Positions 1,778-59,464 of a stretch of DNA of 64,000 nucleotides are shown piece after piece; the first letter of the stretch is position 1, and each line of letters starts with the position of its first letter. The position numbers and the translations under genes were made by a program. The notes beneath the pieces were generated by a model. That model did not search any database, was not told where the DNA came from, and worked only from the letters and a program-made list of their open reading frames with translations. This DNA is from an uncultured Gemmatimonadales bacterium (GTDB lineage: Bacteria; Gemmatimonadota; Gemmatimonadetes; Gemmatimonadales; GWC2-71-9): positions 178,644-242,643 of the forward strand of contig CAWHMT010000004.1 of assembly GCA_963830455.1 (NCBI GenBank). The letters run 5' to 3'.

Positions 1778-2068
1778 CTAATGGCCGCGATGATACCGGC
1801 GGTATTTGCGATGCGGCGTTACGACGACGACGCGCGGTTCGGGAAAGTAGCGCGGGGCGACAACGACAACCGGCGCGCGGTGGTAGTACGGACGATACTG
1901 GTAGTAGTAAGGACGCGCGTATCGATGGTAGTACGGCTGCCCGATCACGACGTGGCCATTGAAGTAGGGATCGCCGAAGCTGACGGAGACCCCAACACGC
2001 GTTTGGGCCTGCGCAATACCACTCGCCAATCCCAGCAGCAATCCGACAATGACGAAGATCCGTTTCAT
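1778..2068 (-). CDS. Small secreted Tyr/Pro/Arg/His/Val-rich protein (96 aa precursor)
   Basis: The ORF track gives 1778..2107. I prefer the internal ATG at 2068 because AAGGAGG lies 5 nt upstream and the product then begins with a signal peptide, MKRIFVIVGLLLGLASGIAQA. The mature part is low-complexity (PYYHRYARPYYYQYRPYYHRAP, VVVV runs). Confidence 0.6.
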   Translation of the reverse strand: MKRIFVIVGLLLGLASGIAQAQTRVGVSVSFGDPYFNGHVVIGQPYYHRYARPYYYQYRPYYHRAPVVVVAPRYFPEPRVVVVTPHRKYRRYHRGH

Positions 2069-2200
2069 AGCTGCCTCCTTTTGCCGCCGCATTAACGGAA
2101 GGAGCATGCCACTACACTGGAATCCGTAAGTAGCTGCTGGGTAACGAGTTAGTTTGGAATGGCGAGGTCTGCTTGTCCTACAACAGCGACAACTGTCCGT

Positions 2201-3268
2201 TCAGTCTCCGAAGCTGGTTCCGAGATCGCGCGCGGTCGCAATCGTATCTGAGTCGAGCGGCACGCGCTTCGGCGTGGTGATGGCATCCGCCAGCAGGACG
2301 GAAGCGATGCGCGGCGGTTGCAGCGCAACCATCATCCCGAACTTGCCCTCGGCGACGAGACGCACGGCCGCAGCCCCGAACCGCAGTGCGAGCAGCCGGT
2401 CGAACGTTGTCGGACCGCCGCCGCGCTGGAGATGTCCGAGCACCAGCGAGCGCGATTCCTTCCCCGTCATCTGCTCGATCGAGTGCGCCAGCTTATCGGC
2501 AATGCCGCCGAGGCGCGCGTGCTCGGGATCGATGAGTGACACCGTGCCACCTTTAGGAACGGCGCCCTCGGCGGCAACGACGATGCTGAAGTGACGGCCT
2601 TCGGCTTCCCGACGCCGAATCTTGTCGCACACCTTGTCAATGTCGAACGGGATTTCGGGAATGAGGATGACGTCCGCCGAGCCGGCGACGCCGGCGTTCA
2701 GTGCGATGAAGCCGGCGTGGCGCCCCATGACCTCGACCACCATGACGCGCTCATGGCTCTCCGCCGTGGAGTGCAGCTTGTCGATCGCGTCGGTGGCCGT
2801 CGCGACCGCGGTATCGAAGCCGAAGGTTGCAGCCGTGCCTTCTACGTCATTGTCGATCGTCTTGGGAACGCCGACGACCGGCAATCCTCTCCTCCACAGC
2901 TCATACGCGATCCCGAGCGTTCCCTCGCCGCCGATGGCGATCAAGGCGTCGAACCGGTAAGCTCGGAATGACTCGAACAGCTCCGGCGTGCGGTCGCGCT
3001 CCTCCCAGGTGCCGTCCGGTCGCTGACGCCGCCACTTGAGGGGATTGCCGCGGTTCGACGCACCCAGGATGGTTCCGCCGAGATGGGTGATGCCGCGGAC
3101 CTCCTGCGGGCCGAGCGGCATCGGCGGCTCCTCGCCGAGCAGACTGCCGAATCCGCGTCTGATCCCGAAGCATTCCCAGCCGCGATGCACGGCAGCGAGG
3201 ACGGCGGCGCGGATGACGGCATTCAACCCGGGAGCGTCACCCCCGCCGGTGGAGATGGCGAGCCTCAC
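2201..3268 (-). CDS. pfkA: 6-phosphofructokinase (ATP/PPi specificity unresolved)
   Basis: 355-aa ORF containing GGGDAPGLNAVIRA, IGGEGTLG and PKTIDND, the PFK family motifs. It has a GTG start at 3268. Confidence 0.9.
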   Translation of the reverse strand: MRLAISTGGGDAPGLNAVIRAAVLAAVHRGWECFGIRRGFGSLLGEEPPMPLGPQEVRGITHLGGTILGASNRGNPLKWRRQRPDGTWEERDRTPELFESFRAYRFDALIAIGGEGTLGIAYELWRRGLPVVGVPKTIDNDVEGTAATFGFDTAVATATDAIDKLHSTAESHERVMVVEVMGRHAGFIALNAGVAGSADVILIPEIPFDIDKVCDKIRRREAEGRHFSIVVAAEGAVPKGGTVSLIDPEHARLGGIADKLAHSIEQMTGKESRSLVLGHLQRGGGPTTFDRLLALRFGAAAVRLVAEGKFGMMVALQPPRIASVLLADAITTPKRVPLDSDTIATARDLGTSFGD

Positions 3269-3504
3269 CGCTGCGGGGCGGTCCTTTCGCGAATCAGGCG
3301 CACCACTTCACCTGCTTCGGCGTGGCGTTTCAAGGATTTCTTGGAGAAGATGCGGCGCCCGTCGACCTCCACTTCAAAGACGCCACCGGACGATTGGATC
3401 AGACGCACTTCGGCGTGAGGGTAGGCGTCGCGGATCTCGGCCGCCAGACCGGTGGCCCGAGGTTCGTAGTTTCAAATGACGCAGTATTCAATCGTGACGG
3501 TCAT
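3265..3504 (-). CDS. selW: SelW-like / Rdx-family selenoprotein (79 aa) with in-frame TGA (Sec) at 3472..3474
   Basis: Not in the ORF track because it is split by the TGA. Translation: MTVTIEYCVI-U-NYEPRATGLAAEIRDAYPHAEVRLIQSSGGVFEVEVDGRRIFSKKSLKRHAEAGEVVRLIRERTAPQR. IEYCxxU plus GGxFEVxVDG matches the Rdx thioredoxin-like family, where this position is Cys or Sec. Coding character continues for 68 codons after the TGA. The true stop TGA (3265-3267) overlaps the pfk GTG start. Confidence 0.75.
3436..3461 (-). promoter_or_regulatory. Putative bacterial SECIS hairpin
   Basis: The mRNA reads CUCGG-G-CC-A-CC[GGUCU]GG-C-GG-CCGAG. It starts 11 nt after the UGA, and the apical loop carrying GGU is about 21 nt from the UGA. 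Pairing was done by eye, not with a folding program. Confidence 0.55.
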
Positions 3505-3567
3505 GGCGTGAACGATAGTCGCGCTTGACACACCGCGCCACGGCGCCGACCTTGCGCGAAACCTTCT

Positions 3568-5667
3568 ATGCGGCGAGCACTCCTGGTCCGTGCGGTGGTA
3601 TCGGTCGCCGCACTCGTCAGTTTTGGCGCGGGGCTAATCGCCCTCGCGCGGGGAACGTCCCCCGCGGGCGGCAATCTGCCGCTCGCCGGCGTCGTGCTCG
3701 TCCTCGTCGCCGCGCTCAGTCGTCGCTACGGCATCGCGCTTCCGGGCAACGGCTTCTCTTCCTACATCGTCGGCGTGTTGCTCTTCGCGATCCTCGATCG
3801 GGGCTGGGCTTTCGCCGCCGTCATCGCGCCGTTCTCCATGCTCGTCGGCGACGTGCTGATGCGCCGGCTCCCGGTCCGCGCCGCGCTCGGCAACGCGGCG
3901 CATCTCACGGCGGGTACGACGTTCGTCGGGCTCATGTACGCCCGTATCGGTGGCGCGACCGGCGCCGCCGCCGCGCTGTCGGTCGACAACGTCGGCCCGA
4001 TGGCAGTCACGATCGCGGTGTTACCCATGATCGTGAACGGGACGTTCTATCTGGAGCTCGCGTTGGGACAGACGATCGCGTGGGTGGACGCTCGGCTCAC
4101 GCTGCGCTGGGAGTCCATCGTCTACCTCGTGTCGGCGGCGCTGGCGCTCAGCTGGCTCGCGCTGGTGCATGCCGCCATCCCGACCGGTCCCCGGCTGCTG
4201 ATGCTCGCGGCACTCGGGCTCGCTACGCTCGGCAGTCTCCATGTGCTGCGCCTCGGCGTGCGTGCCGACGAGCTGCAGTTGATTCAGCGGCTCGCGCACG
4301 CGATCGCGGCGGAGCTGACGCTCAGCAAAAGCTTCACGCGCGTCCAGGAGCTCACGCGCCAGCTCGTCCCGTGGGAGCAGATGGGGTTCGCCCGCTACGA
4401 TGCGCGGACGCGCCAGATGGAGCTGGTGGCCGACACCGCGGCACAGCCGGGAGCGTCGTTTCGCTTCGACTCGGACGCGGGGCTCACCGCGGAAGCGTTG
4501 CGCCTGCGGCGTCCCGTGGTTGCGCATGGATTGGCCCCGGATCAAGTCGTCGTTCCGGGCGCGGAGAGGGCGGGTTCGGAGCTGCTCGTCCCCCTGTACC
4601 ACGCGGGGCAGCTCGTCGGACTCTGGAGCGTGCGACATTCCAATCCCGCGATGTACCGAGAGTCCGACGGCGAGCTGCTCGCGCTCCTCGCCCCGCAGCT
4701 CGCCCTCATGGTCGCGATCGACGGCTCGCTGCGCCCGGTGACCGGCGCGTCCGACCAGACAACGCAGTACGTCCAGACGCTGACGGCAACGACCGAAGAG
4801 ATTCACGCGTCCAGTGAGGAAGTATCCGCGTCGGCGCAGCGCGCGAGCCACGGCGCGGGACAAGCCGCCACGCTCGTGGCGACCGCTGCCGGCGAAGCGG
4901 GACAGCTCAAGGAGAGCGCCACGCAGCTCGCCGCGGCCGGCGACCGCACGCGCGAGGCGGGTTCGCAGATGGAGAAGACGGCGGACCGAGTCCGGACCGG
5001 AACGGAGAGCGCCGTGCGCCAATTGACCGACCTCGGCACCACGACATCGGAAAGCGCCGCGGAGGTCGGGCGGCTGCGGGACGTCGCGACGCAGGTCGAG
5101 AAGTTCTCCGAAACGATTGGCTTCGTCGCGAATCAGACCAACCTGCTCGCGTTGAACGCGACGATCGAAGCCGCGCGCGCGGGGGTTCACGGGCGCGGCT
5201 TCGCGGTCGTCGCCGACGAAGTTCACAAGCTGGCCGAGGCGAGCGGACGCGAGGCCCGCAACGTTGGCAAGGCGGTGCTGGACACCCGCCGGGCGCTGGA
5301 TCGCGCCGCCCAACTGATCGAGCGCATCCGCGGGGACTTGAGCCAGGTCGTGCAGAATTCCGCCGCCTGGGTGACCGATCTCGACCAGATCGGCGAAGCG
5401 GCGATCGAAACGGCGCGCGCCGGCAAACAGGTCGCGGAGCTCGGCCGCCACAGCGCGGAGCTGGCGAGCAAAATCACGGAATCGCTCAGTCAGGCGCGGG
5501 CGGCCGCGCAGAGCTCGAGCCAGGAAGCCGAGGCGGTCGCGGCAGCCGCCGCCGAGCAGCTCCGCGCTATCGAGGATCTCGCCCAGGGAGCCACCGAGCT
5601 GTCCGCCCTCGCCGAGAAGCTATCGCAGGCACTGCACTTCATCCGCGGGGGCAATGGTCATCCGTAG
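3568..5667 (+). CDS. Methyl-accepting chemotaxis protein with polytopic membrane N-domain and GAF domain
   Basis: 699-aa ORF. The N-terminal ~230 aa is hydrophobic with multiple helices. A central GAF-like block follows ([26 protein letters not shown]). The C-terminus carries the MCP signalling core [33 protein letters not shown]. Confidence 0.85.
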
Positions 5668-7126: not shown

Positions 7127-7175
7127 TTTAGAGGCCGATTATTAGAGTGGTGTGCCGCTAACCCCGGGGAAAGAC

Positions 7176-8621
7176 ATGCGCGCTCAGACCTCGCTGCTGG
7201 TGCTCTGTCTACTGCTTGCTCCCACCATTGGCGCCGCCCAACACTCACATCAGTTCGAGATGGGCGCGTTCGGGTCGTACACGCGCTACGACCAGGTATT
7301 CAACCTCGACAAACAGATCGGTGGCGGCGGACGACTGGGCTATTTCTTCAGTCCCGTTGTGGGCGTCGAGCTCGACATCGGAGTTCAGCAGCCGTCTCCT
7401 AAGGGCGGCGGAGCCTCCGTCGGTCTGACGCTGGGCGGCGGCAGTCTCGTGTTCAACTTCGGGAACCAAAAGAACCTCTTCTATATCCTGGGCGGGTACT
7501 CCAGGCTCAGCTTCACCGACAACCCTTCATACACGTTCGACGACAACGCAGTCCACGGCGGGATTGGCGACCGAATCTTCCTCGGCGAGCGCGTCGCGCT
7601 GCGGATCGAGGGTCGGGCGCTGTACTCGCCCAACACCAACTATCCCAGCGGCACGTGGGCAGGACACATCGTCGCCTCGGCCGGTCTTTCCATATTCACC
7701 GGGCCAAGCGCATTCAAGGACAGTGATCAGGACGGCATCGCGGACAAGGGTGATACGTGCCCCGCGACACCCAGCGGCGCGGTCGTGGACGCGCAAGGGT
7801 GCCCGAGCGATGCCGATCGTGACAAGGTCTTCAACGGTCTCGACGCCTGCCCCAACACCGTCGAGGGCGCCGAGGTGGACGCTCGGGGGTGCCCCAAGGA
7901 CGCTGATGCCGACGGCGTGTACGACGGCATCGACAAGTGCCCCGCGAGCGCGACCGGCTCGCGCGTCGACGCGACCGGATGTCCCACGGACTCCGACGGC
8001 GACAGCGTGTTCGACGGGCCCGACCAGTGCCCCGGCACGCCAACCGGCGCGACCGTGGATGCGAACGGCTGCCCGATCGACAGCGATCGCGACAGCGTGC
8101 CCGACGGCATCGACAAATGTCCGAATACTCCGGCCGGCACCGAAGTCGACACGGCCGGTTGCCAGCGCGCATCAGACTCCGACGGCGACGGTGTGGACGA
8201 CACAAAGGACAAATGCCCCGGTACGTCGTCCGGCACGCGTGTCGACGCGGCGGGCTGCCCGATCCTGTTCATAGAGGCGCGCCAGCCTGTGGTCTTGCGG
8301 GGCGTGACGTTTGAAACCGGGCGCTCGGCGCTGCGGCCCGATTCCTACACGATTCTCGACATGGTCGCGATTTCGCTGGTGAACAATCCGGATATCAACG
8401 TCGAGATCTCGGGTCATACCGATGCCACGGGATCAGCCGCGACGAACCTGCGCCTGTCACAGGCCCGGGCCGACGCCGTGCGCGCGTATCTGGCGAGCAA
8501 GGGCGTGGCACCGGAAAGAATGGTCGCGAAGGGCTACGGCCCGGAGCAGCCGGTCGGGCCGAATACGACGCCGGCGGGCCGCGCGCAGAACCGGCGCGTC
8601 GAACTGCGGAGGACCAATTGA
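7176..8621 (+). CDS. OmpA-family outer-membrane protein: beta-barrel + 6 thrombospondin type-3 (TSP3) repeats + OmpA C-domain
   Basis: The track ORF starts at 7152; the ATG at 7176 gives the signal peptide MRAQTSLLVLCLLLAPTIGAAQ. The protein has repeated DxDxDGxxDxxDxCPxTPxG units and a C-terminal OmpA motif (GHTDATGS...NRRVELRR). Confidence 0.85.
   Translation: MRAQTSLLVLCLLLAPTIGAAQHSHQFEMGAFGSYTRYDQVFNLDKQIGGGGRLGYFFSPVVGVELDIGVQQPSPKGGGASVGLTLGGGSLVFNFGNQKNLFYILGGYSRLSFTDNPSYTFDDNAVHGGIGDRIFLGERVALRIEGRALYSPNTNYPSGTWAGHIVASAGLSIFTGPSAFKDSDQDGIADKGDTCPATPSGAVVDAQGCPSDADRDKVFNGLDACPNTVEGAEVDARGCPKDADADGVYDGIDKCPASATGSRVDATGCPTDSDGDSVFDGPDQCPGTPTGATVDANGCPIDSDRDSVPDGIDKCPNTPAGTEVDTAGCQRASDSDGDGVDDTKDKCPGTSSGTRVDAAGCPILFIEARQPVVLRGVTFETGRSALRPDSYTILDMVAISLVNNPDINVEISGHTDATGSAATNLRLSQARADAVRAYLASKGVAPERMVAKGYGPEQPVGPNTTPAGRAQNRRVELRRTN
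7719..8262 (+). repeat. In-frame tandem TSP3 (calcium-binding) repeat array, 6 units of about 95-100 bp
   Basis: Six xCPxTxxG units: DTCPATPSG, DACPNTVEG, DKCPASATG, DQCPGTPTG, DKCPNTPAG, DKCPGTSSG. Confidence 0.8.
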
Positions 8622-10318
8622 GGACGACGGGGAGGAGAGTTCACATCGTGAGAGCGTTCGCTGCGGCTGTGGCAGCGCTCGTCCTGGGCTCGGCAAGCCT
8701 GTCGGCGCAGTATGCCCGCCGATACGAGGTGGGACTCTTCGGGGGCTTCACCAAATACGACGACGCATTCCAGCTCGCCAACAAGAGCGGCGGCGGCGTG
8801 CGGTTCGCGTATTCATTCACTCCCCTCATTGCCGTGGAAGTCGAAGGACTGTTCCAGTCGCCCCAGGACGTCAGCACGGTGCACGTGGAGCCGCTCATCG
8901 GCAGCGCGAGCCTGGTCTTCAACGCCCTCAACAAGAGCCGGATGAGCGCTTACCTGCTCGGCGGCTACACGCGACTCGATTTCGGAAATACGAGCCCGTA
9001 CGACTTCACCGACGGCGGTTTCCACGGAGCCGCGGGCGCGAAGTTCTACCTGAGCTCGCGGGTGGCGCTGCGCATCGAGGGACGCGGCATCTACACCGCA
9101 GAAACCAAAAGCGCGTTCGCCACTGGCTCGCAGAGCGCCACGCACATCGTGGGATCCGCCGGCCTGTCCTTCTTCCAGGCCGGCGGCACGCCCTCGGTTG
9201 ACACCGACCAGGACCGCGTCGAGGACAAGAGCGACGCCTGCCCCAACACGCCGCTTGGCGCCAGTGTGGACAAGCGCGGCTGCCCGGGCGACGAAGACAC
9301 CGACACCGTTCTCAACGGGATCGACAAGTGCCCCGGTACGCCGAGCGGCGCGGAGATCGATGCGACCGGCTGCCCGCATGACCAGGATGGCGACCGGGTT
9401 TGGGACGGCATCGACAAGTGCCCGGATACGCCGGCTGGAACGACCGTGGATGCGCGCGGTTGTCCTCCCACACCGGGGGACAGCGACGCTGATGGCGTGA
9501 ACGATCTACTCGACAAGTGCCCCGCGACACCCAGCGGCGCGACGGTGGATTTCAACGGCTGCCCGATCGATTCCGATCGCGACGCGGTGTGGGACGGCCT
9601 GGACAAGTGCCCCGACACGCCGATCGGCGCGTTGGTCGATCCGACGGGCTGTCCCAAGGACAGCGATGGTGACCGGGTGTTTGACGGCATCGATCGCTGC
9701 CCCGATACGGCCGCCGGCACCCCGGTCGATGCGTACGGCTGTCCCGCTGACAGCGACAAGGACGGCGTGGGCGACGGCTTCGATAAGTGCCCGAACACAC
9801 CGCCCGGTACGGTGGTCGACGCGAATGGCTGCCCGCCGGCGAAAGACACCGACGGCGACGGTGTCATCGATCCGCAGGATCGGTGCCCGAACACCCCGCT
9901 GAATACGGGGAGGGCCATCGATCAGTACGGGTGCCTGGTGCTGTTCGACAGCACGACGGTCGTGCGCGGCGCGCCACGCCCGACCATCATTCTCAAGGGC
10001 GTGCAGTTCGAGAGCGGTCGTTCGGTCCTCACAGTGGCATCCTACGCCGTGCTGGATCAGGTGGCGGCGTCGCTGATCGCGAATCCGGAGATCCGGATCG
10101 AGGTCGCGGGCTATACCGATTCCACGGGCGCGCGCATGATGAACCTGCAGCTTTCGATGGCACGCGCGGGCGCGGTGCGCGCATATCTCGCGCGTCGCGG
10201 AGTCAGTCCGATGCGGATGTCTGCGAGAGGATTTGGGGCATCGGGGTACATCGCGCCGAATGCGACGCCTGAGGGCAGATCGCAGAATAGACGGGTCGAG
10301 TTGCACAAGTTGAATTAG
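8618..10318 (+). CDS. OmpA-family outer-membrane protein paralog: beta-barrel + 8 TSP3 repeats + OmpA C-domain
   Basis: The TTG start overlaps the previous stop (TTGA). It has a signal-like AAAVAALVLGSASLSAQ, the same domain order as the upstream gene, and ends GYTDSTGA...NRRVELHK. Confidence 0.85.
   Translation: MRTTGRRVHIVRAFAAAVAALVLGSASLSAQYARRYEVGLFGGFTKYDDAFQLANKSGGGVRFAYSFTPLIAVEVEGLFQSPQDVSTVHVEPLIGSASLVFNALNKSRMSAYLLGGYTRLDFGNTSPYDFTDGGFHGAAGAKFYLSSRVALRIEGRGIYTAETKSAFATGSQSATHIVGSAGLSFFQAGGTPSVDTDQDRVEDKSDACPNTPLGASVDKRGCPGDEDTDTVLNGIDKCPGTPSGAEIDATGCPHDQDGDRVWDGIDKCPDTPAGTTVDARGCPPTPGDSDADGVNDLLDKCPATPSGATVDFNGCPIDSDRDAVWDGLDKCPDTPIGALVDPTGCPKDSDGDRVFDGIDRCPDTAAGTPVDAYGCPADSDKDGVGDGFDKCPNTPPGTVVDANGCPPAKDTDGDGVIDPQDRCPNTPLNTGRAIDQYGCLVLFDSTTVVRGAPRPTIILKGVQFESGRSVLTVASYAVLDQVAASLIANPEIRIEVAGYTDSTGARMMNLQLSMARAGAVRAYLARRGVSPMRMSARGFGASGYIAPNATPEGRSQNRRVELHKLN
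9198..9930 (+). repeat. In-frame tandem TSP3 repeat array, 8 units
   Basis: Eight units: DACPNTPLG, DKCPGTPSG, DKCPDTPAG, DKCPATPSG, DKCPDTPIG, DRCPDTAAG, DKCPNTPPG, DRCPNTPLN. It shares near-identical DNA stretches with the 7719-8262 array (for example aacggctgcccgatcga). Confidence 0.8.
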
Positions 10319-27087: not shown

Positions 27088-27714
27088 TTGCCACCTAAGC
27101 TTAGTAACGACAGAGCATTAAGGATCATCGCGGTTGCCCGCGAAGAGTTCGCACGACGCGGCTTCGCGGGCGCGCGCGTGGAGCAGATCGTCCGTCGCGC
27201 CGGCGTCAACAAACAGCTGCTGTTCTACTACTACCACTCCAAGCGCGGGCTCTTTCAAGCCGTGCTCGAGCAATCGGCGAATGAGCTCGAAGGCGCGCTC
27301 GCGGGATTGGCGCTCCCGCCTGGCGGTCCGCTCGAGCGGCTGCGGCTCACACTCCAGGCACAATTCGAATTCCTCTCGCTCCATCCGCAGATCGTGGTGC
27401 TCCTCGGCCAGGGATCACGGGGGGGGAGCGGGAGCGGGGGCGGGGGCGGGGGGGGGGGCGGGACGGCGTTCGGCCCCGCGATCAAACGGCTGGTGGTGTT
27501 GCTCGCTGAAGGCCAAGGGCTGGGTCAGGTGCGGGACGATCTCGATCCGCACCTCACCGCAGCCCAGGCCCTGATGCTGATGGTCGGTTATCTCAACATG
27601 GAGTCCGTCGTGGCCGCCAGCGCGCGCCCGCTGGGCGCCGACGAACCGGCGCTGCGCCAGCGTTGGCGCGATGCGGCGGTCGACCTAGTGGTTGCCGGCG
27701 TGCGCGCTAGCTAG
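27088..27714 (+). CDS. TetR/AcrR-family transcriptional regulator with internal poly-Gly insert
   Basis: The N-terminal HTH is IIAVAREEFARRGFAGARVEQIVRRAGVNKQLLFYYYHSKRGLF. It has a TTG start. The GGSGSGGGGGGGGG segment is at residues 112-125. Confidence 0.85.
   Translation: MPPKLSNDRALRIIAVAREEFARRGFAGARVEQIVRRAGVNKQLLFYYYHSKRGLFQAVLEQSANELEGALAGLALPPGGPLERLRLTLQAQFEFLSLHPQIVVLLGQGSRGGSGSGGGGGGGGGTAFGPAIKRLVVLLAEGQGLGQVRDDLDPHLTAAQALMLMVGYLNMESVVAASARPLGADEPALRQRWRDAAVDLVVAGVRAS
27419..27462 (+). repeat. G-tract cluster (G8, G3, G5, G5, G11, G3) inside the TetR coding sequence
   Basis: Read directly: gggggggg a g c ggg a g c ggggg c ggggg c ggggggggggg c ggg. The G11 run is at 27448-27458. 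Confidence 0.9.
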
Positions 27715-54629: not shown

Positions 54630-56039
54630 TCAACGTCCACCGGAGACGTGGAGGTCGAGTGCACTCACCCGCCGCATGTCTCGCCGTACGCTCGTGAGTC
54701 CGATGAGGATGATCACGCCGCCCAGGAACCCGACGGCCGGTAGGAGCAGCATCGCGCCCCGCAGGCTGCCGGTACGGTCCGAGAGATAGCCGATGAGGGG
54801 AGGCGCCAGCGCGTCGCCCGCGAGGTGCGAAAACAAGACAAACGCCCCCAGCACCGATGCCTGGACCGCCGGGGGGACGACATCGAGAATCACCGCGATC
54901 AGTGGACCGTTGTACCAGGTATAGAAGAAATACGTCGCGAGAACAAGCGGCGTGAACCAGCGGAGATCGTCAACGAGGAGCAACAACGCGCAGACCGGGG
55001 CACCGAGCACAAATCCCGCGCCGGACGCGAGCACGCGACCGCCAGGCCACCGCTGCTGCAGTCGATCGGCGAACCGCCCGCCTACCAGCGCGCCACCGAC
55101 ACCGCCGACAAGGGCCCAGAAGCCGAATTCAGAGCCCACGCGCGCGACTGAAAGGCCGTGCACCCGCTGCATGAACGCCGCCGCCCAGGCGATCAGTCCG
55201 TTCACGGCGAATGTCACCATGGCGCCGCCGAGAAAGACCCAGATGAGCGTCGGCGTGCGCAGCACCAGCACCGCGGCGTCCTGAAAGTCGTCGAACGCCC
55301 CCGCGGCGACTGCGCCAGCCGCGGTCGTGCGTCCCACGGCCAGCGGCACCAGCCGCCAAACCGTCCACGCGATGCCGGCGCTCACGCCCACACCAAACAC
55401 GGCCGTGCCAATGAGAGGGGGGATGCCCTCAAAGAGCGCCAGCAACGCCGCGATGGCGGCCCCGACTCCCGCGCAGATGGCGAGCGGCGCGACATACTGC
55501 GTGACGCCATGCATGCCGTGTCGCCACCACCCGCGAAGAGTCTCGACGATGGGGGGGGGCGGCCGGCGATCCAGCTCGCGCAGCCGCGATGCGAGCAAGG
55601 CGAGGACGAGTCCCGGAAATCCCATCCAGATGAATGCCCAGCGCCACCCGTAGCGCTCCGCAATGATGCCGCCGAGCCAGATCCCAAGGACGCCACCGAG
55701 CGCCATGCCCACCGAGTAGATGCCGATCGCGAACGCGCGCCGGCGGCCCTTGTAGTACTGCGCGATGATCGCCTGCGACGCCGGGCCGTAGCCCGCTTCG
55801 CCGAATCCCACGAGCGCGCGGCAGGTGAAGAGCTGCCAGAAGTGCCGAACGAATCCACCGGCCGTGGTCGCCGCGCTCCACACGGTGACGCCCCACGTGA
55901 TGACGGCGCGCCGGGAACGGAGATCGCCGATCACGCCGAGCGGCAGCGCGGCGAGCGACAACACGATGATGTACGCGGAGCCGAGCCATCCGAGCTGCGC
56001 GTCGGTGAGGTTCAGCTCGCGCTTGACCGGCTCGAACAC
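54630..56039 (-). CDS. MFS transporter (Spinster-like); true N-terminus probably extends to about 56165
   Basis: The track ORF starts at GTG 56039, but the same frame upstream encodes AYAAYVLGLLTLVNLLNYLDRNVVYA (TM1 plus the MFS N-terminal motif) with no ATG/GTG/TTG. A CTG at 56165..56163 has GAGG 6 nt upstream. Confidence 0.8.
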   Translation of the reverse strand: MFEPVKRELNLTDAQLGWLGSAYIIVLSLAALPLGVIGDLRSRRAVITWGVTVWSAATTAGGFVRHFWQLFTCRALVGFGEAGYGPASQAIIAQYYKGRRRAFAIGIYSVGMALGGVLGIWLGGIIAERYGWRWAFIWMGFPGLVLALLASRLRELDRRPPPPIVETLRGWWRHGMHGVTQYVAPLAICAGVGAAIAALLALFEGIPPLIGTAVFGVGVSAGIAWTVWRLVPLAVGRTTAAGAVAAGAFDDFQDAAVLVLRTPTLIWVFLGGAMVTFAVNGLIAWAAAFMQRVHGLSVARVGSEFGFWALVGGVGGALVGGRFADRLQQRWPGGRVLASGAGFVLGAPVCALLLLVDDLRWFTPLVLATYFFYTWYNGPLIAVILDVVPPAVQASVLGAFVLFSHLAGDALAPPLIGYLSDRTGSLRGAMLLLPAVGFLGGVIILIGLTSVRRDMRRVSALDLHVSGGR

Positions 56040-56145: not shown

Positions 56146-57282
56146 TCAGGTCGCGCGGCCGCCAGTTGCCGCCTCGGCGCGCGCGTCGCGATCCTCTTTG
56201 GCCTCGAGATAGGAATCGGTGAGCTCGCGCATCATGTCCGCGCGCCTGTGGTACAGGCGCTTCAGCGTCCGGGGCTTGCGCCGGGCCAGCGCGTACGCGG
56301 CCAGTATGGGAAACGCGACGGTGTTGTCGAGATACGCCACAACGGTGCCGGGCAGCTTGTCCGGATCCACCTTGCCCCAGCTCACCGCCTCCGCCGGCGT
56401 CGCTCCCGAGAGGCCGCCCGTGTCGGGACGGGCATCGGTCAGCTGGAGGTAGTAGTCGTGGCCCTTCTCGCTGATGCCGAGCACTTCCTGAATCTGCGGC
56501 TCGGTTTGCAGCACGAAGTTCTTGGGACTGCCGCCGCCGATGATCAGCACGCCGCTCTTGCCGCCGCGCACCTTGGCCGAGAACACGATCGACGAGGTCT
56601 CGTTCACGTCGGCGCTCACGTCGAAGCGCAGCTTGCTTCCCGAGAGGGCCTGCTCGGCGACGTTCATCCCGATCGACGAATCTCCGGGCGAGGACGTGTA
56701 GATCGGCACCGCCGCGGCATGCGCCGCGCCGAGCACCGATTTCCGCGTCAGCCCGAGCGCCTGCTCACGCTCCAGCACGTAGCCGCCCAGCAGGTAGTGG
56801 TATTCGGCGGTGCTCATGGGCCGCTGAAATTCGGGCCGGGCCGAGACATCGCGGACGAAGCGGTCCGTCGACAGCAGGACGTCGTAATCGAAGAAGACGT
56901 CGTAGATCCGCACGACGCCCTCTTCACGCAACACCACGTCGTCGGCGAACGGCGTGCCGCGATGCATCGCCATGCCCAGGCCGAAGTGCGCATCGTGATA
57001 CAGATTCGCGCCGGTGGACACCATCCAGTCGATGAATCCCGCTTCGATCAGCGGGATCATCGTCGACATGCCGAGTCCCGCCGGGGTCATCGCACCGGTC
57101 AGGCTCATCCCGACGGTCACATCGTCTTCGAGCATGCGCTCGGCAAACAGCCGGCAGCCTTCGCTCAACCGGCCCGCGTTGTACGCCAGAAACGCGTTGT
57201 CGACGAGCTCGGCGACGGTCTCTTTGCCGGTGACCGGCTTCGGATTGATGCGCTGGCCGCGCAGGTATTCGTTTTGGGTCAT
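56146..57282 (-). CDS. Deoxyhypusine-synthase-like protein (DHS/homospermidine-synthase-like, NAD-dependent aminobutyl transferase family)
   Basis: The ATG at 57282 (MTQNEYL) forms an ATGA overlap with the LOG gene. [23 protein letters not shown] and GGGSPKNF are DHS-family blocks. Confidence 0.85.
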
Positions 57283-58049
57283 CGTGTGCTCTGGCTTTTC
57301 GATTGCATGGCGCGGAACGCGCGCGTGCGCCGTTCCCGAGCTTCCACGATCCACCCGAGAGCTTCCTTGGGGTCGTCGGTCACGAGGAAGAGATTCAGGT
57401 CTTCCGGTGCGATTTTGCCCTCTCCCGCCACCCGCTGTTTGAGCCAGTCAGCCAGGCCACCCCAGTACGCGCGGCCGAACAGCACGACCGGGAATTGTTT
57501 CACCTTGCCCGTCTGGACCAGGGTCAGCGCTTCGAACAGCTCGTCCATGGTGCCGTAGCCGCCGGGAAAGGTGATGAATGCGGTCGAATACTTCACGAAC
57601 ATCGTCTTCCGGACAAAGAAGTAACGGAAATTGATCGAGCGCTCGACCCACCGGTTGGTGCCCTGCTCGAAGGGCAGCTCGATGTTGCAGCCGATCGACA
57701 GCCCGCCGCCTTCCTTGGCGCCGCGATTGGCGGCTTCCATGATGCCGGGGCCGCCGCCGGTGATGATCGCAAAACCCTCTTTGGCCAGCATCCGGGAGGT
57801 CTCGCGTGCCGCCTCGTAGTAGGGATCGCTTTCGGCCGTGCGCGCCGAGCCGAACACCGTCACCGCGTTGCGCACATCGGACAGCGTATCGAACCCCTCG
57901 ACGAACTCGCCCATGATGCGCAGCACGCGCCACGGATCGGTGCTCGTGAAGGAAGCCCGCCGCTCGACCGGAACGGTCTGCGGCGCTGTGAGGAGTTGTT
58001 CGTCTTCAGTGAGCGGGCTGCGCGGCGAGGCGCTCGGTTGCTCTGACAT
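57279..58049 (-). CDS. LOG-family (TIGR00730) Rossmann-fold protein
   Basis: [19 protein letters not shown] and [12 protein letters not shown] motifs. The start is ATG 58049 (AGGA 5 nt upstream) or 58055. Either overlaps the upstream gene by more than 40 nt. Confidence 0.85.
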
Positions 58050-59175
58050 GGTCATCCTGCACGTTATAGAAGAAAGGCGAGAACCGGACGTGACCAGGCC
58101 GCGTGTCGGCGATGATGCCGCCCGCGGCCAGGTGCCGGACACTGGCTCCGGGATCGGGCATGGGAACCATGACGATGGCGGAGCGGTCCCGAGCGTCAGC
58201 GGCGACTTTCGGCTTGAAGCCCGCCGCCCGCAAGGTCGCGATGAGATCCTCGGTCAGCGCCGCGGTCACATCCCGGATGGCGGGAACGCCGATCTCCTCG
58301 ATGTACTCGAGACCACCGAGCTGCGCGTAGACCGCGGCGAGCGCCGGCGTGCCGAGCTCGAAGCGCCGCGCGCCATCGTGCAGCGTCAACGCGCGCGGAT
58401 CGAAGGCGAACTGCTCGCGCTGACCGAACCAGCCGGAGATCCTGGGCTCGAGGCGCCGGGCCACGGCCTCGCGCACATAGAGGAAGACGATGCCGGGCCC
58501 TCCGAGCAGCCACTTGAGACCGCCCGCCACGAGCGCATCGACGCCGGCCTGCTGCACGTCGACCGGGACCTGACCGACCGATTGGTAGGCATCGATCAAA
58601 CACAACGCGCCGTTCGCATGCGCCACGTCCGCCACCCGCTTGATGTCCTGAATCGCCCCGGTCGTGAAGTACACATGGGAGGTCACGACGAGCGCGGTCC
58701 GATCATCGACCGCGCGCGCGATCGCTTCGACCGGAACGCTGATCTTGTCCGGACTCTCGACGATCACGAGCTCCACGCCGTGCTTCGCCTTCGCGAGCCA
58801 CTGGTAGGCGACCGTGGGGAAATCGAGCGCGGTGACGACAACTCGGGGCCGGCGGCTGTAGTCGATGGACTCGGCCACCGCACTCAGCGCCACCGAAATG
58901 CTCGGGGCAAGGGCGATATCGTTGGCGGTGGCGTTCACGATGCGCCCGTAGCGAGCGCGCAGATCGGTCAGCGCTTCCCACCACACGTCATACCATGCCG
59001 CCGCGCCGCGCCGCTGCCAGATGTCGAGGAATTCGGCTACCTTGCGTCGAGACCGCTCACCCAGTGCGCCCAGCGAGCAGGTGTTGAGGTAGACGGTGTC
59101 CTTGAAGATTGGAAACTCGCCCCGGTACGAGGCGAGTCCGAGCGCGCGCGGTGTCACGCTGCTTGCGAGCGTCAT
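58006..59175 (-). CDS. Class-V aminotransferase-fold PLP-dependent enzyme (cysteine desulfurase / kynureninase-like)
   Basis: 389 aa. FPIFKDTVYLNTCSLG, LVVTSHVYFTTG, LIDAYQSVG and GGLKWLLGGPG (PLP lysine region). Confidence 0.8.
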   Translation of the reverse strand: MTLASSVTPRALGLASYRGEFPIFKDTVYLNTCSLGALGERSRRKVAEFLDIWQRRGAAAWYDVWWEALTDLRARYGRIVNATANDIALAPSISVALSAVAESIDYSRRPRVVVTALDFPTVAYQWLAKAKHGVELVIVESPDKISVPVEAIARAVDDRTALVVTSHVYFTTGAIQDIKRVADVAHANGALCLIDAYQSVGQVPVDVQQAGVDALVAGGLKWLLGGPGIVFLYVREAVARRLEPRISGWFGQREQFAFDPRALTLHDGARRFELGTPALAAVYAQLGGLEYIEEIGVPAIRDVTAALTEDLIATLRAAGFKPKVAADARDRSAIVMVPMPDPGASVRHLAAGGIIADTRPGHVRFSPFFYNVQDDHVRATERLAAQPAH

Positions 59176-59197
59176 AGCCCGGGAATATACAGAAGGA

Positions 59198-59464
59198 ATG
59201 CAGCGTATCGCGAGTTGGTCGGCATTCTATTTGCGCTTGGCGCTGCGGGCGGTCGTGCGGCCCCGACTGGCCGTCGATTTGCTGCGGCTCGCGTGGAGTT
59301 TTCGCGCCCGCGATTGGTATCGCCGGCTGCCGTTCCTGCCACTGCCGCCGCGCGACTACATGCAATGGCGGATGTTCACCGCGTACGGCGACGAAGACGC
59401 GATTCCCCCGGTCGAGGATGTCGTGAATTTCGCCCGGTGGCGCCGCGAGACGATGGGATTATGA
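59198..59464 (+). CDS. Small hypothetical protein (88 aa)
   Basis: The ATG at 59198 is preceded by GAAGGA. The upstream part of the track ORF (from 59096) is antisense to the PLP-enzyme gene. ATGA coupling to queG. Confidence 0.5.
   Translation: MQRIASWSAFYLRLALRAVVRPRLAVDLLRLAWSFRARDWYRRLPFLPLPPRDYMQWRMFTAYGDEDAIPPVEDVVNFARWRRETMGL

Follow-up and report, generated by a model that had tools for sequence, protein, structure and literature searches.

A 64,000-nucleotide stretch of DNA from an uncultured Gemmatimonadales bacterium (contig CAWHMT010000004.1 of assembly GCA_963830455.1; the whole stretch is called 'the window' below) very probably carries, on its minus strand at positions 3265-3504, a genuine gene for a SelW-like selenoprotein that is decoded with the aid of a selenocysteine insertion sequence (SECIS). 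This gene, which we call selW, is predicted to be functional and to encode a 79-residue SelW-like protein of the Rdx family with a thioredoxin-like fold. The UGA triplet at codon 11 would be decoded as selenocysteine (Sec), directed by a hairpin that lies inside the coding sequence at 3436-3461, and the resulting C8-x-x-U11 redox centre would end strand beta-1 of the protein. We assume that the product acts as a thiol/selenol oxidoreductase. The features that carry this interpretation are as follows.

3265-3504, minus strand: predicted coding sequence of a SelW-like (Rdx family) selenoprotein, 79 amino acids including Sec11; matches to Rdx, NF041051 and TIGR02174; same architecture in 80 of 80 related loci.
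3472-3474, minus strand: predicted Sec codon UGA, second redox residue of C8-x-x-U11; TGA in 80 of 80 related loci, Cys in homologs.
3436-3461, minus strand: putative SECIS hairpin within the coding sequence, CUCGGGCCACC[GGUCU]GGCGGCCGAG; apical loop 3446-3450, conserved upper stem 3440-3456.

The selW reading frame and its annotation

The selW frame starts with an ATG at 3504-3502 and stops with a TGA at 3267-3265. Its first ten codons, which encode MTVTIEYCVI, are followed by the in-frame TGA at 3474-3472 and then by 68 sense codons. An earlier note on this DNA, made from the sequence alone, had proposed a 79-residue product obtained by reading through this TGA, and our translation of the frame is identical to the one given there, including the number of sense codons downstream. 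The same note had described the interval as empty for standard gene finding, which is not correct, as a 47-residue open reading frame (ORF) with a GTG start is present in the ORF list at 3265-3408 on the minus strand, inside the selW interval. Its description of the gene as hidden is apt for naive ORF callers, but does not extend to the family or to the layout of CxxU motif and SECIS, both of which have been known since 2005 (PMC1088965). Public annotations, among them NCBI and JGI records, hold fragments of 44-65 amino acids that derive from TGA-containing orthologs, many of which are named 'selenoprotein W-related'.

Conservation of the UGA codon and its cysteine counterparts

Relatives of selW were collected by a genome scan that admitted one genome per species and yielded 80 loci; nine shorter loci were added later, for a total of 89. 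The 80 loci come mostly from metagenome-assembled genomes (MAGs) of Gemmatimonadales and Gemmatimonadota, and the encoded proteins range from 93% down to 46% identity. Other loci belong to Acidobacteriota, Actinomycetota, Chloroflexota, Krumholzibacteriota, Fibrobacteraceae, the Firmicute Marinithermofilum and a betaproteobacterium, such that at least six phyla are represented overall. A TGA occupies the CxxU position in every one of the 80 loci (74 were recognized by a strict pattern and the other six by separate inspection). The ten codons located 5' of this TGA are conserved across loci, with the consensus M-x-V-x-I-E/Q/T-Y/F-C-x-x, and are therefore translated.

Matches in protein databases fall into two classes, which are N-terminal truncations of 44-65 amino acids that come from TGA-containing genes, and full-length proteins of about 78 amino acids. 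The DNA was inspected for seven of the full-length proteins, and five of these (P0003, P0009, P0002, P0004 and P0012) carry genuine TGT or TGC codons at the position of interest. The product deposited for P0005 by JGI (positions 177-419 of locus L083) shows 'W' at a position where its DNA has TGA. The remaining protein, P0001 (341-580 of locus L085), shows 'R', and its DNA reads AGA on a single 883-bp contig in ENA. Cysteine-form loci with TGT or TGC verified in the DNA are L081, L082 and L086-L089. Cys aligns with the TGA both in these homologs and in the CxxC motif of solved Rdx structures, as the earlier note had anticipated. Closely related sequences may have either the putative Sec form or the Cys form, an alternation that is typical of selenoprotein families (PMC1088965). 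From this correspondence, together with the absolute conservation of UGA, we infer that Sec is actually inserted at codon 11.

A probable SECIS hairpin constrained at the RNA level

Downstream of the UGA, nucleotides 3461-3436 can form the hairpin CUCGG-G-CC-A-CC[GGUCU]GG-C-GG-CCGAG, which has nine pairs, one bulge and one A.C mismatch. It is part of the minimum-free-energy (MFE) fold, with a value of -12.6 kcal/mol. Counted from the UGA, the hairpin begins with the 11th nucleotide downstream, and 21 nucleotides lie between the UGA and the loop. The published model for bacterial SECIS elements, called bSECIS, calls for an apical loop of 3-9 nucleotides, an upper stem of at least 4 bp, a G in the first two loop positions, a distance of 16-37 nucleotides from the UGA, and an MFE of -7.5 kcal/mol or lower (PMC13188914). 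The hairpin agrees with this model throughout: its spacing, stem and stability lie within these limits, and its loop of five nucleotides has G at positions 1-2 followed by U. The placement of the stem-loop and its bacterial SECIS geometry, as set out in the earlier note, are thus borne out.

Comparative data were drawn from an alignment of 70 distinct 48-nucleotide segments, each beginning at the UGA, which align without gaps. In a stem of seven pairs, formed by columns 18-24 and 30-36, 88.6% of cells are paired, compared with 17-60% when the 3' arm is slid to other registers. Changes on both sides of a pair occur in 21 cells, distributed over four pairs of this stem, versus 5.5 cells in shuffled alignments, and none of 500 shuffles reached either the observed covariation score or the observed percentage paired. 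For example, pair 23-31 changes from CG to UA in seven sequences, pair 21-33 changes from CG to GC in three, and five pair types are found at pair 18-36. The lower stem drawn in the earlier note (columns 14-18 with 35-39) is less conserved than the seven-pair stem. Stem substitutions are also found that alter the encoded peptide (RAAGLAAE to RAVGLTE) and keep the pairing, a pattern that points to selection on the RNA.

The loop provides a further line of evidence. Across the 70 segments, G26 is invariant and U27 is more than 90% conserved. The latter nucleotide falls on the third position of a Gly codon, which is GGT in 65 of the 70 loci with Gly, GGG in the other five and GGC in none, against a background in the window's genes of 55% GGC and 12% GGT among Gly codons. 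Among five distinct Cys forms, the corresponding codon is GGC in one and GCG in two, and the loop U is therefore lost in three of the five. This small natural control suggests that the constraint on the loop U accompanies the UGA.

Both the hairpin and its loop thus bear the marks of selection at the RNA level. By analogy with characterised bacterial systems, the GGUCU loop would bind the elongation factor SelB carrying GTP and Sec-tRNA(Sec). In the SECIS of Escherichia coli fdhF, the hairpin is located about 11 nucleotides after the UGA and has an apical loop of the GGUC type, and work on the SelB-SECIS complexes of E. coli and Moorella revealed that SelB contacts the loop G and U. Compared with the fdhF element, the hairpin described here has a GGUCU loop with an invariant G then U that lies one codon further from the UGA, gives no evidence for a bulged U, and has an unrelated stem sequence. 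In the window, the stem sequence is constrained by the RA(A/T)GLAAE peptide that it encodes.

Protein family and predicted fold

For profile searches, the U of the selW product was replaced by C. The resulting query matched the Pfam family Rdx (PF10262) with E=1e-20 and 74.1 bits against a gathering cut-off of 22.6, and the match joins residues 2-73 to positions 1-74 of the 74-position profile, which is its full length. The NCBIfam equivalog NF041051, 'SelT/SelW/SelH family (seleno)protein', was matched with 103 bits (curated cut-off 88), and TIGR02174, 'CXXU_selWTH', with 63.2 bits (curated cut-off 34.2). The assignment to Rdx made in the earlier note, which had recommended the Pfam search, is therefore well founded. 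Sequence matches in the PDB comprise the bacterial Rdx structures 3DEX, 2FA8, 2OKA, 2OBK, 2OJL and 2P0G, and also human MIEN1; C8-V-I-U11 is aligned onto the C-t-q-C of 3DEX and 2FA8.

AlphaFold was used to model the fold on P0003, which shares 74% identity with the window protein and has a genuine Cys at the Sec position. The model (pLDDT 90, pTM 0.80) has the order beta-alpha-beta-beta-beta-alpha, and its redox motif is positioned at the end of strand E2-8 and ahead of helix H14-27, which is the beta-1/alpha-1 junction. When the model was compared with the PDB, the top matches were all SelW-related (2FA8, 2OBK, 2OKA and 3DEX, with TM scores of 0.80-0.86), and scores of 0.67-0.71 were obtained for MIEN1 (2LJK) and mouse SelW (2NPB, 0.67). 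Membership in the Rdx family is thus established for the window protein, and by way of its Cys homolog the model assigns it a thioredoxin-like fold.

Evaluation of alternative readings of the UGA codon

Several observations weigh against a SECIS-decoded selW. The stability of the hairpin is no better than that of shuffled sequences, with z=+0.62 in a 61-nucleotide context and z=-1.35 for the 26-nucleotide hairpin, at 65% GC. The computational fold proposed as a check in the earlier note therefore recovers the hairpin, but does not reveal unusual stability for such GC-rich sequence. Because these z-scores are not significant, our argument relies on covariation and codon bias, and the covariation counts come from phylogenetically related sequences rather than from independent events. 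The A.C mismatch in the window stem, at pair 22-32, is common to 20 of the 70 distinct sequences, including the nearest relatives. An Rfam scan of the whole window at gathering thresholds produced no matches, including for any bacterial SECIS model. Finally, components of the Sec machinery were not encountered in the regions covered. ARAGORN reported no tRNA genes at all in the 64-kb window, and hence no tRNA-Sec, and SelA, SelB and SelD were absent from a Pfam survey of 40 window ORFs. No Sec machinery was found in the 80 six-kb loci or the nine shorter ones either, where ARAGORN reported one tRNA-Arg only, and tblastn of the 89 loci with an approximate sequence of E. coli SelD as query gave no match. 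The window accounts for 64 kb out of several megabases of genome, and so its negative says little. The conservation of the UGA and of the predicted SECIS implies that soil Gemmatimonadales are likely to decode selenocysteine.

The UGA might instead be a true stop codon, in which case the locus would yield a ten-residue peptide and an independently initiated, truncated Rdx-like protein, such as the product of the 47-residue GTG ORF at 3265-3408. ORF finders and public annotations do call fragments of this sort (44-65 amino acids), and this explanation would also agree with the lack of Sec machinery in the window. However, the truncated product would be devoid of strand beta-1 and of the whole CxxU/CxxC redox motif, the ten upstream codons and the TGA are kept in all 80 loci across phyla, close relatives have TGT or TGC instead and are read straight through, and the starts of the annotated fragments vary between records. 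The comparative data strongly disfavour a true stop, which we regard as very improbable. Still less credence can be given to a pseudogene, or to a Cys-form gene (TGT or TGC) in which sequencing or assembly introduced the TGA by mistake. Single-base neighbours of the TGA do exist in databases, as with the AGA on the 883-bp contig of L085, but the presence of an identical TGA in 80 independent assemblies refutes this idea for practical purposes, purifying selection is evident both before and after the TGA, and conservation of the SECIS loop is specific to the forms that carry TGA. The probability is equally negligible that this organism uses a reassigned code such as 4 or 25, in which UGA specifies Trp or Gly, and that the residue is something other than selenocysteine. 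The W at the Sec position of the JGI record P0005 could be cited in favour, yet the DNA of this locus has TGA, its translation differs from the deposited product, and the W results from the annotator's choice of genetic code. Moreover, homologs and solved structures have Cys at the aligned position, and neither Trp nor Gly. A reassigned code is excluded because TGA terminates about half of the gene-like frames in the window (22 of 43), including those of selW and the adjacent pfk gene.

Overlap of selW with a phosphofructokinase gene

The predicted selenoprotein gene selW is flanked by the following genes.

2201-3268, minus strand: 6-phosphofructokinase (PFK) gene pfk, 355 amino acids, GTG start; Pfam PFK match with E=2.4e-99, NF002872 match.
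3568-5667, plus strand: divergent neighbour, gene for a GAF/MCP-signalling membrane protein; Pfam MCPsignal and GAF_2, tblastn match in 59 of 89 loci.

The pfk product scores 362 bits against NF002872, which represents ATP-dependent 6-PFK and has a cut-off of 253 bits. The selW stop codon and the pfk start codon share the sequence GTGA at 3265-3268. The GTG at 3268 is the first possible start in the pfk ORF, and residue 2 of the product falls on position 1 of the Pfam PFK profile; for these two reasons the pfk start, and hence the overlap, is fixed. The overlap described in the earlier note is real, and an NTGA overlap is conserved in 32 of the 35 pfk-bearing loci examined in detail (GTGA in 20, TTGA in 12). 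The pfk start codon accordingly switches between GTG and TTG among relatives with the overlap kept. No conserved Shine-Dalgarno motif was found upstream of the pfk start in these 35 loci.

The gene order in Gemmatimonadales is the divergent GAF/MCP-signalling gene, selW, pfk where present, and a DEAD-box-type helicase gene. Directly 3' of selW, pfk occurs in 39 loci out of 80, exclusively from Gemmatimonadota, and the adjacency is kept in L049, L050, L053 and L054, distant Gemmatimonadota loci with different genes on either side of the pair. Among Gemmatimonadales loci, about two thirds have pfk with an NTGA overlap. It counts against a general tie that pfk is absent in about 17 Gemmatimonadales loci, or roughly a third, in which the helicase gene comes directly after selW. 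Likewise, pfk is absent in all Cys-form loci with enough sequence to judge (L081, L082, L086, L088 and L089). Coupling to pfk is therefore not essential for selW function. The connection to a glycolytic kinase that the earlier note had drawn survives as a conserved overlap, but it is weaker than was implied there.

In the proposed arrangement, selW would be the first cistron of a selW-pfk pair, and ribosomes that finish selW would probably reinitiate on pfk. Given the overlap, translational coupling of this kind is plausible as a lineage-specific trait. We consider the chances about even, however, that the selenoprotein is real and its link to pfk incidental, a consequence of compact gene packing in which pfk is translated independently and has no functional or regulatory relation to selW. 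Four-base gene overlaps are common in compact, GC-rich genomes, no selW locus outside Gemmatimonadota has pfk among the 80 examined, and the absence of pfk between selW and the helicase gene, as well as from the Cys-form loci, fits such a view. An incidental link is less easily squared with the retention of the overlap through the GTG-to-TTG switch of the start codon, with the adjacency that persists where the other neighbours have changed, and with a pfk start that is not preceded by a conserved Shine-Dalgarno motif.

One locus departs from this layout. At 3031-4165 of L028, the selW frame runs on into pfk and stops only at 4165, with a tblastn PFK match from residue 57. Such a run-on could stem from a frameshift or from faulty assembly, or the genes could truly be fused or disrupted here.

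A conserved element upstream of selW

The short region between selW and its divergent neighbour holds one further feature.

3505-3567, minus strand: divergent intergenic region of 63 bp, holding the element TGTCAAGCGCGACTATCGTT at 3511-3530; candidate promoter.

The 20-nucleotide element is unique in the window, where no chance matches (0) are expected, and its TATCGT ends 7 nucleotides before the selW ATG. It is nearly invariant in 55 of the 89 loci, which amounts to essentially the whole Gemmatimonadales clade. In most of these 55 loci the element is separated from the ATG by 5-8 nucleotides, and in seven by 10-31 nucleotides; the start codon is always ATG. Shine-Dalgarno sequences are absent before selW in the loci that bear the element, and the selW genes of other phyla have Shine-Dalgarno sequences of the GGAGG type and sometimes GTG starts. 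A consensus scan of 2000-3800 for sigma-70 promoters and terminators found no match. TATCGT may be a -10-like box for a leaderless selW or selW-pfk mRNA. Alternatively, the element may serve selW and the divergent GAF/MCP gene as a common operator.

A tighter relation between the two products can be imagined, although we think it unlikely. Sec decoding could act as a gate on the synthesis of PFK in Gemmatimonadales, or this PFK could have the SelW-like protein as its dedicated redox partner. The gating idea arises because the selW-pfk message is seemingly leaderless, and because pfk has no conserved Shine-Dalgarno motif and starts inside the selW stop codon. Were it true, reinitiation at the pfk start would be open only to ribosomes that had decoded UGA-11 as Sec, and glycolytic flux would respond to selenium supply or to SelB activity.

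Relation to known selenoproteins

Bacterial SelW-like selenoproteins with a CxxU motif and a SECIS right after the UGA were described in 2005 by Zhang and Gladyshev, and at that time they were the most abundant selenoprotein family in Sargasso Sea data (PMC1088965). The window gene resembles this family in its N-terminal CxxU, its length near 80 amino acids, its predicted thioredoxin-like fold and its Cys-form homologs, as well as in the small hairpin, with G in its apical loop, that comes directly after an in-frame UGA (PMC1088965). Nothing structural sets it apart; the differences lie in the soil-type Gemmatimonadales host and in the four-nucleotide overlap with pfk. Rdx structures with Cys (Atu0228, 2FA8; SAV_2001, 3DEX; and 2OBK, 2OKA, 2OJL and 2P0G) share the fold and the position of the IEYC-x-x-C motif, but they have CxxC rather than CxxU, are about 30-36% identical, and are about 100-108 residues long as deposited. 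Mammalian selenoprotein W (2NPB) and MIEN1 (2LJK) also share the Rdx family, the CxxU/CxxC motif and the fold. In contrast, the SECIS of mammalian SelW is of another, eukaryotic type and resides in the 3' untranslated region, whereas the putative element described here is located inside the coding sequence after the UGA (PMC1088965).

The selW gene, in which every defining feature tested was found, is therefore a further member of a well-known family rather than a novel type of element; no known principle is changed by it. Our literature searches returned nothing relevant on selenocysteine in Gemmatimonadetes or Gemmatimonadota, or on an operon of selenoprotein W with phosphofructokinase. Relative to the literature searched, three details are new: that soil-type Gemmatimonadales are predicted to use Sec, that selW and pfk share a conserved NTGA overlap, and that a conserved candidate promoter element, possibly for a leaderless mRNA, precedes selW. 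The finding also has value for annotation. This gene and dozens of its orthologs from Gemmatimonadales MAGs have been deposited as truncations of 44-65 amino acids that lack the catalytic CxxU, and others as products that contain 'W' through use of a wrong genetic code. In addition, the selW-pfk overlap offers a concrete and testable context for the study of what this family does in bacteria.

Other observations in the window

A heuristic scan of the window for other TGA-split genes led to no accepted candidate. One candidate, at 27118-27552 on the minus strand, was rejected because a TetR-family gene lies opposite to it on the plus strand (27088-27714), and a same-frame TGA junction at 54630 proved to separate a gene for a major facilitator superfamily (MFS) transporter from an ATP-grasp gene. 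The TetR-family regulator contains an unusual internal poly-Gly/Ser insertion, GSRGGSGSGGGGGGGGGT. Read in antisense, frames of its gene look like coding sequence that contains an in-frame TGA, which is how the false selenoprotein candidate arose.

Elsewhere, tandem paralogous outer-membrane proteins are encoded on the plus strand at 7152-8621 and at about 8700-10318, each combining an outer-membrane beta-barrel with thrombospondin type 3 repeats and an OmpA domain. A class-V aminotransferase (Aminotran_5) is encoded at 58006-59226 on the minus strand; its family includes cysteine desulfurases and selenocysteine lyases, and there is no evidence here that this protein is related to selenium metabolism. 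Finally, a bacterial homolog of the deoxyhypusine synthase family (Pfam DS, E=4e-66) is encoded at 56146-57447 on the minus strand, where its gene adjoins those for the MFS transporter, an ATP-grasp ligase and a zinc-ribbon/metallopeptidase protein.

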